From contig JAURXV010000156.1 of the NCBI GenBank assembly GCA_030654195.1, forward strand, positions 207 through 64,206: DNA of 64,000 bases, in the 5' to 3' direction. Positions 24,269 to 26,350 of the stretch are shown here, one piece after another (within the stretch, counting starts at the first letter, position 1; each line of letters opens with the position of its first letter). The notes under the pieces were generated by a model. The model was not told the DNA's origin and made no database searches. It saw only the letters and a list, made by a program, of their open reading frames with translations. Origin of the DNA: Syntrophales bacterium. GTDB taxonomy: Bacteria > Desulfobacterota > Syntrophia > Syntrophales > UBA5619. The position numbers were made by a program, and so were the translations under genes.

Positions 24269-26350
24269 TTAAGAGTTACATGGTACTGCCTTGATTCCTG
24301 TTAGTGCGAGAAACGCCGCCTCATCAAGGATGGCGATGCCCTGCTGCCGCGCCTTTTCTATCTTGGAACCAGCGGCTTCCCCTGCGACGACGTAGTTTGT
24401 CGTCTTCGTGACAGAGCTTCCGACCGCCCCCCCCATCGATTCCACGAGCGCCTTGGCCTCGCTTCGGCCCATTCGGGAAAGGGTTCCGGTAAATACAAAT
24501 GTTTTACCCGCAAGGGGTGCGGCCTTCAGCCGCGCCGTCTCCATGGGGACACGATGCGGCATCATGTCCCCGATGCCCGCACTGCGGAGCTTTTGGATCA
24601 CCTGAAGGTTGGCCGCTTCCCGGAAGAAGCCGACGATGCTTGCGGCGACCTCGGGACCGATATCCCGGACGGTCTGCAACTCCTCCGAAGTGGCGGCCAT
24701 CAGGGCGTCCAGCTTGCCGCAGGCCTGCGCGAGTCGCTTTGCCGTCTGTTCCCCGATGTGGCGAATGCCGAGGGCAAAGATCAGGCGGTCCAGCGGCGGG
24801 CTTTTCGCCCGGCCGATCGCCTCTAACAGATTCGACGCCGATTTTTCGGCCATCCGCTCAAGGCCGAGAAGTTTCTCCTTCGTCAGGAAGAAGAGGTCGG
24901 CCGGGTCATGGATCAGACCGTTCGTCACGAGCTGAGCGACCATTTTGTCCCCCAGCCCTTCGATGTCCAGCGCCCCGCGGGAGGCGAAGTGGACAATATG
25001 TTCGCGGATCTGGGCCGGGCAGGCTATGCCGATGCACCGGTGGGCAACCTCGCCCTCCATCCGGACGACCCGGGAGCCGCATTCCGGACAGGTCTCCGGC
25101 ATGACGAAGGGCTTTTCAGAGCCGATTCTTGCGGTTTGGACGACCTCGACGACCTCGGGAATGACGTCACCCGCCCGCTGAATCATCACCGTATCCCCGA
25201 TGCGGATATCTTTTTTGCGGATCTCGTCCTCGTTGTGGAGGGTCGCCCGGCTGACCATGACGCCGCCGACGCGGACCGCTCTCATGACGGCGACCGGCGT
25301 CAGGACGCCTGTCCTTCCGACCTGGATGACGATATCCTCGATCACCGTCCTCTCCCGGATCGCCGCGAATTTACAGGCAACCGCCCAGCGGGGACTGCGG
25401 GAGACGGCGCCGAGACGCTCCTGCAGACGGAGGTCATTCACCTTGATCACGATCCCGTCTATCTCGTAGGGGAGTTCGTCGCGCATTTGGCCGATGTGGT
25501 GGTAATAGTGAATGCATTCTTCGATATCCACCGCGGGACGGATCAGGGGATTCACCTGAAAACCCCAGGCGGCGAGCGTTCGGAGGACCGCTTCGTGCGT
25601 TTGGAAGGTAACCCCTTCCGCCGTCGCGATCGCATAGCAGAACATGGTGAGCGGCCGTCGCGCCGTGATCCGCGAGTCTAACTGGCGGAGCGATCCCGCC
25701 GCCGCGTTGCGGGGATTGGCGAAAGGGGGTTCACCCTGTTCCGTACGGCGGCGGTTCAGGTTGCGGAAGGCCTCCCTCTCCATGCAGACCTCCCCCCGAA
25801 TCTCGATCCTCTCCGGCACGGCCGCCATTCCGCCTCCCGGCGGGGGGGGCGGATCATCCGTTCGCGGGACGGAAAGGGGAATCGCCGGGATCGTCCGGAG
25901 GTTCAGCGTGACATCTTCACCTACAGTGCCGTCCCCGCGCGTCGAGCCCACCGTCAGCCGGCCGGATTCGTAGAGAAGGTTCACGGCGAGGCCGTCCAAC
26001 TTCGGCTCCACGACATAGCGGATAGGGTCGTCGCTTCCCAGAAACCGGAGGCAGCGGCGGTCGAATTCGCGGATCTCCTCGTCGGAGAAGGCGTTAGCCA
26101 GGCTGAGCATCGGGGTCCGGTGGGTGACGGCGCCGAACTTTTCCAGCGGGGGTGCGCCGACGCGCTGTGTCGGGGAGTCCGGCGTGATGAGATCGGGAAA
26201 TTCCAGTTCCAGATCGTTCAGATCCCGGAGGAGGAGGTCATAGTCGGCGTCGGCGATCTCCGGATCATCCATCTGGTAGTAACGGCGGTTATGGTGGAGA
26301 ATGGTTGTCCGGAGGGATTCGATTCGGGTCTGCGCCGCTTCACGATTCAT
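24269..26350 (-). CDS. ligA: NAD-dependent DNA ligase
   Basis: Adenylation KxDG (EPKLDGLAV), Zn finger CPECGS...C..C, HhH region and BRCT ([10 protein letters not shown]). Carries an in-frame 27-nt palindrome. Confidence 0.97.
24545..24571. repeat. Intragenic 27-nt palindrome GGGGACACGATGCGGCATCATGTCCCC inside ligA
   Basis: Identical to 17973-17999 and 7764-7790. Exactly 9 codons (GDMMPHRVP) in the ligA frame. Confidence 0.92.

Follow-up and report, generated by a model that had tools for sequence, protein, structure and literature searches.

How does a hairpin-forming repeat come to lie, in frame, within the gene for a DNA ligase? The question is raised by a 64 000 nt stretch of DNA (hereafter the window) from an uncultured Syntrophales bacterium (assembly GCA_030654195.1, contig JAURXV010000156.1, positions 207–64 206), in which ligA (24269–26350, − strand) contains a 27 nt palindromic core, exactly GGGGACACGATGCGGCATCATGTCCCC, at 24545–24571 (−). 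An initial annotation of this DNA, made from the letters and their open reading frames (ORFs) alone, had read the locus as a hairpin repeat that colonised an essential gene by exact insertion of 27 nt and is presumably translated. We report here that the core is one copy of a GC-rich hairpin family, with core GGGGACAYGATGCSGCATCRTGTCCCC, which resembles the repetitive extragenic palindromes (REPs) of other bacteria and has spread to many copies within a clade of uncultured Syntrophales/Syntrophaceae. The copy in ligA was gained recently and is still polymorphic between close relatives; it is probably neutral or nearly so. Taken together, a REP-like repeat that survives in frame in a protein linker after a recent, polymorphic and likely neutral gain is the reading that we favour, with a probability of about 75%.

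The palindromic core lies in a linker of LigA

The 693-residue product of the ORF was identified as NAD-dependent DNA ligase LigA. It scored 887 bits against NCBIfam NF005932 (cut-off 369), all LigA domains were recovered by Pfam, and Escherichia coli LigA (2OWO) matched it with E = 4e-197. The gene is presumably essential. In the ligA sense the core reads GGG GAC ATG ATG CCG CAT CGT GTC CCC, encoding GDMMPHRVP at residues 594–602, after HHH_2 (522–585) and before BRCT (612–680). Sequence, translation and Pfam assignment agree with the earlier placement of nine codons between the helix–hairpin–helix (HhH) region and the BRCT domain. The core is free of stop codons in five of its six frames, as had also been noted, the only TGA lying in frame 2 of the ligA-sense strand.

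The ligA-sense RNA of the core was predicted to form a 12 bp stem with one U.G pair (−19.6 kcal/mol, z = −5.1), which is the fully paired hairpin with one G-U that the initial annotation described. Overall, the 27 nt unit, with its 12 bp stem and 3 nt loop, gave −19.6 to −21.4 kcal/mol (z about −5). The hairpin in ligA is followed by AUGGAGACGG and lacks the U-tract of an intrinsic terminator; U-tracts were likewise absent at the copies in hemW and mutL described below.

The HhH–BRCT linker is 20 residues long in alleles that carry the insert and 13 in those that do not; the E. coli linker, at 17 residues, is similar in length and unrelated in sequence. Structure modelling, suggested at the outset as a check on the position of the insert, gave a mediocre AlphaFold2 model in which residues 591–616 are coil or have no secondary structure and the predicted local distance difference test (pLDDT) falls below 50 at 596–610; the insert region is thus predicted to be an unstructured part of the linker. 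The insert is probably translated and tolerated, since it is stop-free, has a length divisible by three and lies in a linker, and the genes that host such copies are intact and conserved.

Filled and empty alleles of ligA

LigA was compared in 120 relatives with 70–99% identity. The insert was present in only 10 sequences (P0001–4, P0006–8, P0012, P0013 and the window), all of them close relatives, and is therefore lineage-specific, in answer to the alignment check that the initial annotation had proposed. At the same site more than 100 orthologues without the insert read AG[IVL]-(T/V/A/S)-P.

At the DNA level, empty alleles read GGGCAT-[T/A/G]AC-CCCC-NNG-G in the mRNA sense, and filled alleles read GGGC[A/G]T-C-GGGGACATGATGCCGCATCGTGTCCCC-ATG-G. 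The segment that separates them (24542–24572, −) comprises a C, the core and an ATG, and corresponds to N-ACC-CCC-NNG in empty alleles. In comparison with the nearest empty allele, 3 nt were replaced by 24 nt, a net gain of 21 nt; the extent of the replacement is at least 24 nt for 3 and up to 31 nt for 10. No target-site duplication was found at the filled/empty ligA junctions. In the protein, T was changed to GDMMPHRV, a net gain of seven residues, and the proline codon, within the terminal CCCC, already existed in the target. Of the original claim of an exact insertion of 27 nt and nine residues, the in-frame gain therefore stands and the size does not. A clean 27 nt insertion was rejected as a general model too: the net differences at intragenic sites were +21, +21, +24, +18, +15 and +12, never +27. 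The residues PM follow the insert in 10/10 filled alleles and in only one or two of ~110 empty ones, so that the ATG was either brought in by the element or is a mark of the receptive allele.

Could the hairpin have been misplaced in ligA during assembly or binning? Short palindromic repeats can confuse assemblers, and the window derives from an uncultured organism. Nonetheless, the insert recurs, at an unchanged position, in NCBI, JGI, ENA and Logan assemblies, which together yielded at least 10 protein clusters with it (38 members in one of them), and three fetched contigs from different projects also carry it. The difference from empty alleles is moreover a frame-preserving replacement, rather than the duplication or collapse of a misassembly. 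The presence of the insert in independently assembled contigs means that it is not an assembly artefact of the window, and an artefact of any kind, a possibility that the initial annotation had raised, is extremely unlikely. The insert is real.

A syntenic contig (L027), 94% identical over window positions 17491–25882, has the hemW copy and an empty ligA site. A neighbour-joining tree was built from nine ligA coding sequences of full length, over 2030 sites that left out the insert columns. Filled P0012 paired with empty P0016, filled P0013 with empty P0020, and filled P0004 with empty P0010, each with 100% bootstrap support, while the filled allele of the window grouped with the empty P0009 and P0011 (91.5%). 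A tree of 40 LigA protein sequences agreed with these groupings. The filled clades are ~12% apart in ligA DNA. On these trees, a minimum of three to four origins or imports of the filled state, all at one nucleotide position, would be needed; the pattern implies either repeated gain at that position or very short conversion tracts.

This distribution bears on whether the ligA segment is instead ancestral and was lost repeatedly, or was gained once and spread by homologous recombination. The filled alleles of the four clades do not differ in core, orientation or junctions, down to the ATG that follows, and presence and absence are interleaved within a group of 93–99% identity, as in a recombining population. 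However, the sequence next to the insert tracks the gene tree and not the filled or empty state, so that any conversion tract is limited to about 35 nt or less, and the divergence between the filled clades also speaks against this explanation. The empty ACC-CCC (Thr-Pro) matches distant orthologues, and no simple deletion of a filled allele yields it; the empty state is therefore ancestral, and the alternative that empty alleles are deleted elements was rejected. We consider repeated loss, or a single gain followed by recombination, rather improbable.

A dispersed hairpin family in Syntrophales

The view of the ligA core as a repeat was borne out. In the window, a search for the 27-mer with up to three mismatches recovered five copies, against 0.00 expected from dinucleotide shuffles: exact copies start at 7764, 17973 and 24545, a copy with one mismatch at 4223 and one with two at 4087. 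Three outer-stem variants were found in addition (0 expected). The exact copies at 17973–17999 (−), in hemW, and 7764–7790 (+), in the hpf leader, are those that had been recorded initially. All five copies are co-oriented regardless of gene strand.

A scan of one genome per species with the exact pattern GGGGACAYGATGCNGCATCRTGTCCCC retrieved the core from at least 107 blocks of 8 kb (loci L001–L107), belonging to at least about 12 metagenome-assembled genomes (MAGs). Nearly all of the blocks listed were labelled Syntrophaceae, Syntrophales, Syntrophobacterales or Deltaproteobacteria; one listed MAG, labelled Poribacteria, has loci homologous to those of a second MAG in this set. Among the matches listed were 168 copies with up to four mismatches, which are the copies counted below. 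A scan of viral contigs gave 11 matching stretches.

The commonest form among the listed copies is a perfect palindrome, GGGGACACGATG-CSG-CATCGTGTCCCC; the form in the window has a fixed C.A (U.G) mismatch, which marks a subfamily. In other subfamilies the outer stem GGGGACA/TGTCCCC is kept, and the inner stem is CCATG/CATGG, CCTTG/CAAGG or GATTT/AAATC. Among 19 distinct variants, 5 of the 12 stem pairs had changed on both sides, and 99.6% of cells were paired. The palindrome is extended by at least four bases into the flanks in 104 of the 168 listed copies; flanks that are A/T-rich and complementary often lengthen the hairpin to ~39–45 nt. In two MAGs three flank types predominate, cCTTAATTC/GAATTAAGg, aGAAAATY/RATTTTCt and GCTTATTC/GAATAAGC, giving hairpins of ~45 nt whose base is A/T-rich. 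Full copies have truncated neighbours in the window (4199–4249 and 7739–7790) and at several other loci. Neither end of the element carries a GTAG or CGTC tag: both are formed by GGGGACA/TGTCCCC, with flanking sequence that is variable or rich in A/T.

Copies downstream of genes and within genes

By approximate count, 112 of the 168 listed copies are intergenic, 13 overlap the end of a gene and 43 lie in predicted ORFs, at a coding density of ~84%. Among the matches listed, the intergenic copies lie between unidirectional (54), convergent (23) or divergent (8) genes, against a background of 353/70/68, at a median of ~45 nt past the upstream stop codon. The 43 listed copies in ORFs comprise ~14 near the 5′ end, which are probably leaders swallowed by over-long ORFs, three in C-terminal tails and ~26 (about 15% of those listed) deep inside. 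The deep copies are in frame, have coding signal on both sides and occupy all three frames; their peptides include GD[TM]M[PR]H[RH]VP and xGTRCGI[VM]SP.

In the real proteins among 19 host ORFs checked with Pfam, the copy lies between or after domains, mostly in interdomain linkers. It separates DNA_mis_repair from MutL_C in MutL, and GDE_N from GDE_C in a glycogen-debranching enzyme, a further copy being found inside GDE_C. Copies were also located in a radical-SAM/DUF2344 linker, in the linker between the N- and C-terminal parts of a UPF0261 protein and in a GH57 protein; IlvD and a CO-dehydrogenase flavoprotein have theirs in the C-terminal tail. In ligA, hemW, mutL, GDE and others the frame stays open, with intact domains on either side of the copy. 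One predicted ORF (L045, 5709–8000; GATase domain) has three in-frame copies, at about residues 88, 294 and 424; all are upstream of the sole Pfam-matched domain, and this N-terminal region is only putatively coding.

The orientation of the asymmetric variant was not associated with the direction of transcription or with the GC skew of the block. In-gene copies are oriented with the gene in 18 cases and against it in 22, and tests against the direction of transcription gave 26/26 and 18/22. Copies within one 8-kb block do tend to be co-oriented (42 same versus 19 opposite pairs; permutation p = 0.006).

Copies in HemW and MutL

The hemW gene, which encodes a radical-SAM haem chaperone, was assigned to 17325–18644 (−) from a match to TIGR00539 (258 bits, cut-off 205); its start codon is uncertain, and the longest ORF overlaps lepA. 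Its copy has the same orientation and frame as that in ligA, again encoding GDMMPHRVP, and together with its flanks forms a 39 nt perfect palindrome (17967–18005). It sits in an expanded loop after the motif DLIYG[LV]P. The canonical loop, DLIYGVPGQ-xMDxWL, is expanded in the clade of the window, in at least 14 clusters, and has been occupied independently in two frames: P0158 has two copies in different frames, and P0165 has one in frame 1. The P0165 copy has a compensatory outer stem, GTGGACA/TGTCCAC, and is still a perfect palindrome of 37 nt.

The empty HemW allele nearest to that of the window (P0122, L127; 91% identity) reads GGGG-GAAACCT-CCCC exactly at the site of the element. This GGGG-N7-CCCC could be the remnant left by deletion of the top of the hairpin, or a pre-existing mini-palindrome that was used as target; it is possible that the empty hemW allele is a deletion of the element.

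In MutL (L059 5439/L082 1072; P0241–P0279), filled, empty and decayed alleles of the interdomain linker are interleaved. Compared with an empty allele of 90% identity, 37 nt stand in place of 13 nt, a net gain of 24 nt with no duplication. Decayed copies read SDETMRHHLP and RETMPHPIP, and one allele, GEMMPHRFP, represents the variant in the opposite orientation. In several alleles with an H-to-R change, the mismatch has been corrected to give the perfect palindrome.

Is the hairpin or its peptide functional?

In orthologous in-gene copies the core was identical at 27/27 positions, whereas the flanks were 77–93% identical. The hairpin, or the peptide, might then be functional and kept by selection, as a protein-binding site in DNA, as an mRNA structure setting the pace of translation between domains or as a useful lengthening of the linker. 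This explanation would accommodate the compensatory stem changes seen even in coding sequence (the P0165 palindrome), the MutL H-to-R variants that restore symmetry, the occupation of one ligA site in four separate clades and the position of copies at domain boundaries. Yet the same sequence occurs in unrelated genes, in all three frames and in both orientations (18 same, 22 opposite), close relatives manage without a copy in ligA, hemW or mutL, and decayed copies such as those of MutL exist. Mutational template switching can, moreover, preserve the symmetry of a palindrome without selection.

The extent of core conservation also depends on how the copies were found. Most of the DNA comparisons came from the exact pattern match and are therefore biased to intact cores. 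The 27/27 identity was also seen in L108/L109, fetched by protein identity and not by pattern, and protein alignments show some core substitutions. Maintenance by selection for such a function is, in our judgement, very unlikely.

Comparison with known repeats

REPs of 20–40 bp, of the GTAG and CGTC superfamilies, have been surveyed by Di Nocera, De Gregorio and Rocco (2013, BMC Genomics 14:522; PMC3733652). In several species REPs lie inside genes and in frame, often in replication or repair genes; the hosts include the DNA ligase of Opitutus terrae, uvrA/B/D, recBCD, polA and dnaE, and different REPs occupy about the same recB site in two Xanthomonas species (PMC3733652). Intragenic REPs were proposed to occupy flexible linkers or loops (PMC3733652). 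In the Syntrophales element the repair proteins occupied are LigA and MutL.

The two groups of repeats share further properties. Both are GC-rich imperfect palindromes of 20–40 nt with high copy number, found mostly downstream of genes, between convergent or unidirectional genes, with a minority in frame in ORFs. The REP-like placement of the Syntrophales element is seen in the intergenic majority (112/168 listed copies) despite ~84% coding DNA, and in the few copies between divergent genes; it also has the stem-loop and the many copies of a REP, the latter as counted in 8-kb blocks. In contrast to REPs of both superfamilies, it has no GTAG or CGTC tag, and no cognate REP-associated tyrosine transposase (RAYT) was found in the 8-kb blocks around copies. 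It differs also in that its core is near-identical across genomes whose genes differ by 10–25%, and in that it replaces target bases, with four filled/empty sister pairs at one nucleotide position of ligA. No literature linking Syntrophus to such repeats was found. The element is an undescribed family in Syntrophales; the phenomenon of intragenic repeats was already known.

Rickettsia palindromic elements (RPEs), to which the initial annotation had pointed, lie in frame in functional genes and add a peptide to the product (Ogata et al., 2000, as cited in PMC3733652), and RPE-4 and RPE-6 have been classed as CGTC REPs (PMC3733652). They resemble the Syntrophales element in being palindromes in frame in ORFs that stay intact; their hosts are obligate intracellular alphaproteobacteria rather than Syntrophales. 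RPE-1 measures ~100–150 bp and encodes ~30–50 residues, in contrast to the 27 nt core described here, which adds only 7–9 residues, has no CGTC tag and is unrelated in sequence. The comparison with RPEs is apt as an analogy, and intragenic REPs (PMC3733652) are the closer precedent.

Bacterial miniature inverted-repeat transposable elements such as Correia/NEMIS and Nezha are non-autonomous repeats able to fuse with or extend ORFs (PMC10969869). Elements of this kind have 70–300 bp, terminal inverted repeats and a target-site duplication, unlike the single hairpin of 27–45 nt found here without duplication. The family also touches on bidirectional terminators: in two MAGs many copies combine an A-tract, the GC hairpin and a T-tract (aGAAAATC-core-GATTTTCt) just past stop codons. 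This feature was confined to the GATTTTC-flanked subfamily of those other MAGs and, in contrast to ordinary terminators, an identical core recurs hundreds of times. Small dispersed repeats of 21–27 nt, some of them hairpin-forming and sometimes nested or adjacent, are reported from Nostoc; they were reportedly judged mobile from filled and empty orthologous sites, with no known transposase. Their hosts are cyanobacteria, and, as they are described, their sequences are unrelated to that of the Syntrophales element.

Mode of spread

On the favoured reading, most copies would settle just downstream of genes, in the fashion of REPs, and those formed where an interdomain linker or surface loop is permissive would keep the frame and persist as translated extra residues. 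The frame is kept in such copies because the core amounts to nine codons and is stop-free in five to six frames. Spread may proceed through single-stranded hairpin DNA, with an existing element being copied into sites that resemble one of its arms, by microhomology-guided template switching or very short ectopic conversion rather than by classical cut-and-paste transposition. We favour this route because target bases are replaced, no target-site duplication is found and an identical product is seen repeatedly at one site. The ligA target GCAT-NAC-CCCC(AT) resembles the right arm of the element, GCAT-CGTGT-CCCCAT.

The main alternative to arm-guided copying is a classical REP or REPIN mobilised as a single-stranded DNA hairpin by a cognate RAYT of the Y1/HUH type, the intragenic copies being by-products. 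The element matches REPs in size, palindromy, copy number and its position downstream of genes. Head-to-tail, hairpin-forming doublets occur in the leaders of hpf and lptC, and REPs within genes are on record (PMC3733652). The co-orientation of copies within blocks (p = 0.006), irrespective of gene strand, would fit a strand-specific mechanism acting on single-stranded DNA, but orientation is unlinked to the GC skew of the block. The absence of either tag and the replacement of target bases at filled sites, in place of a clean insertion, also argue against a classical RAYT.

A search of the 8-kb blocks around copies (~0.8 Mb) with IS200 TnpA and E. coli RAYT sequences (phmmer) gave nothing significant. 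A weak tblastn match led to a single RAYT-like Y1_Tnp gene in one MAG (L071, 4917–5534; PF01797, E = 7.6e-7), and a renewed search of the same blocks with its product found no further copy. The nearest copy of the element is 1.1 kb away. This sole RAYT-like gene goes with a different, GTAG-tagged REP, and mobilisation of the Syntrophales element by a cognate RAYT is on balance unlikely. An inverted pair of the GTAG REP lies in frame between the HUH and Tyr motifs of the L071 gene (5108–5224), its arms 97% complementary; further GTAG-tagged copies were seen in L011, L026 and L055.

Arm-guided copying can be carried further. The element might be no transposon at all but a self-propagating ‘templated patch’ with no dedicated enzyme, whereby arm-like sites (GC[A/G]T-NAC-CCCC in the case of ligA) would turn into the complete palindrome again and again, each time independently. 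This would explain the identical products in four ligA clades, the replacement of the target and the truncated neighbours of full copies; it would also explain the palindrome-extending flanks and the constancy of cores despite divergence of the host genes. We hold this stronger form to be doubtful and offer it tentatively.

Several points weigh against the favoured reading of a REP-like repeat, recently gained and neutral in ligA. No mobilising enzyme was identified in the ~0.8 Mb sampled, and the one RAYT-like gene, in MAG CAYVDS010000026, both contains and neighbours another REP, GTAGGGGCGAACCTTGTGTTCGCCC. A selfish repeat would not usually be gained again and again at a single nucleotide position; the recurrent filling of ligA could instead result from selection or from recombination between lineages, and the conservation of the core might argue for function. 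Translation of the insert is itself presumed. The LigA model was built from 75 sequences and reached a mean pLDDT of 66 and a predicted TM-score of 0.33. Genes were called with an approximate codon-usage caller allowing downstream starts, and the counts of copies by location are approximate accordingly. Finally, among the 19 ORFs checked with Pfam, four had no flanking match and two carried the copy within a domain match.

If the favoured reading holds, the core informational genes ligA and mutL of a free-living anaerobic lineage are open to small hairpin repeats, which persist there as linker residues, presumably translated; this extends cases known from Rickettsia and a few REP-rich bacteria. 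Lineage-specific indels of this origin can mislead alignments, gene callers and the prediction of start sites, and the repeats provide sharp presence/absence markers for tracking Syntrophales strains. Should the refilling of ligA prove to be targeted or templated copying, it would offer a tractable natural system for the study of transposase-free, REP-like spread. A templated patch, if true, would be a distinct mode of spread for very small repeats, with recurrent and predictable insertion of peptides into linkers.

Other copies and repeats in the window

The remaining copies in the window lie in spacers and leaders. From the end of the exact core copy in the rpoN–hpf spacer (7764–7790, +) it is 13 nt to the GGGAGG of hpf and 27 nt to its ATG (7818); a 3′-truncated copy that lacks TCCCC lies 3 nt upstream (7739–7760, +), and the doublet 7739–7790 is predicted to form a 24 bp hairpin (−48.8 kcal/mol). 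Similarly, the copy with one mismatch (loop CCG) in the kdsC–lptC spacer (4223–4249, +) ends 6 nt before the lptC ATG (4256) and is preceded, 2 nt upstream, by a 3′-truncated copy (4199–4220, +). The two doublets, 7739–7790 and 4199–4249, fold into hairpins of ~21–24 bp; most copies, including that of ligA, are single. The degenerate copy with two mismatches (4087–4113, +) is downstream of kdsC.

The three outer-stem variants, for which no strand was assigned, comprise a hairpin with outer stem GGGGACA/TGTCCCC and inner stem GATTT/AAATC that overlaps the kdsC stop codon (4053–4076), a subfamily variant with compensatory inner-stem changes (CCTTG/CAAGG), GGGGACACCTTGCCGCAAGGTGTCCCC, at the lptC/lptA junction (4799–4825), and a second CCTTG/CAAGG variant in the pyrR–pyrB spacer (53979–54005). 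A search of the whole window with Rfam 15 at the gathering threshold found two tRNAs only, and no family for the element.

The longest lptC and hpf ORFs run upstream through the copies (4154–4255 and 7758–7817), as in MVEFQTGAEERREAKGDMMRHHDGDTMPHHVPGE-MKTKRK..., because the repeat is stop-free; by homology, the true starts are at 4256 and 7818. Automatic annotation is likely to over-extend genes such as these.

A second dispersed element, of ~115 nt with C-run/G-run mini-hairpins (CCCCTCCCTTGACGGGAGGGG ... CCCTCCCCCGCCAAAGGGGAGGGG), was seen at 24145–24264 and 28700–28813. One copy fills the ligA–acyP spacer, and the other is inverted, 80% identical and 4.4 kb away. The element is present in the syntenic L027 (98.6%) and absent from L108, L109, L112 and L113, in which ligA and acyP overlap or are directly adjacent. 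In L115 the ligA–acyP spacer has the CCTTG/CAAGG variant of the GGGGACA hairpin in its place. Near gene ends at 9702–9811, 42378–42436 and 45141–45185 there are, in addition, short direct and inverted repeats of the AGTGCTNAGT and GAGTGAGGAGTG types; these form hairpins with a T-run (GAGTGTTTTTC) and are probably a separate, terminator-like type of repeat.

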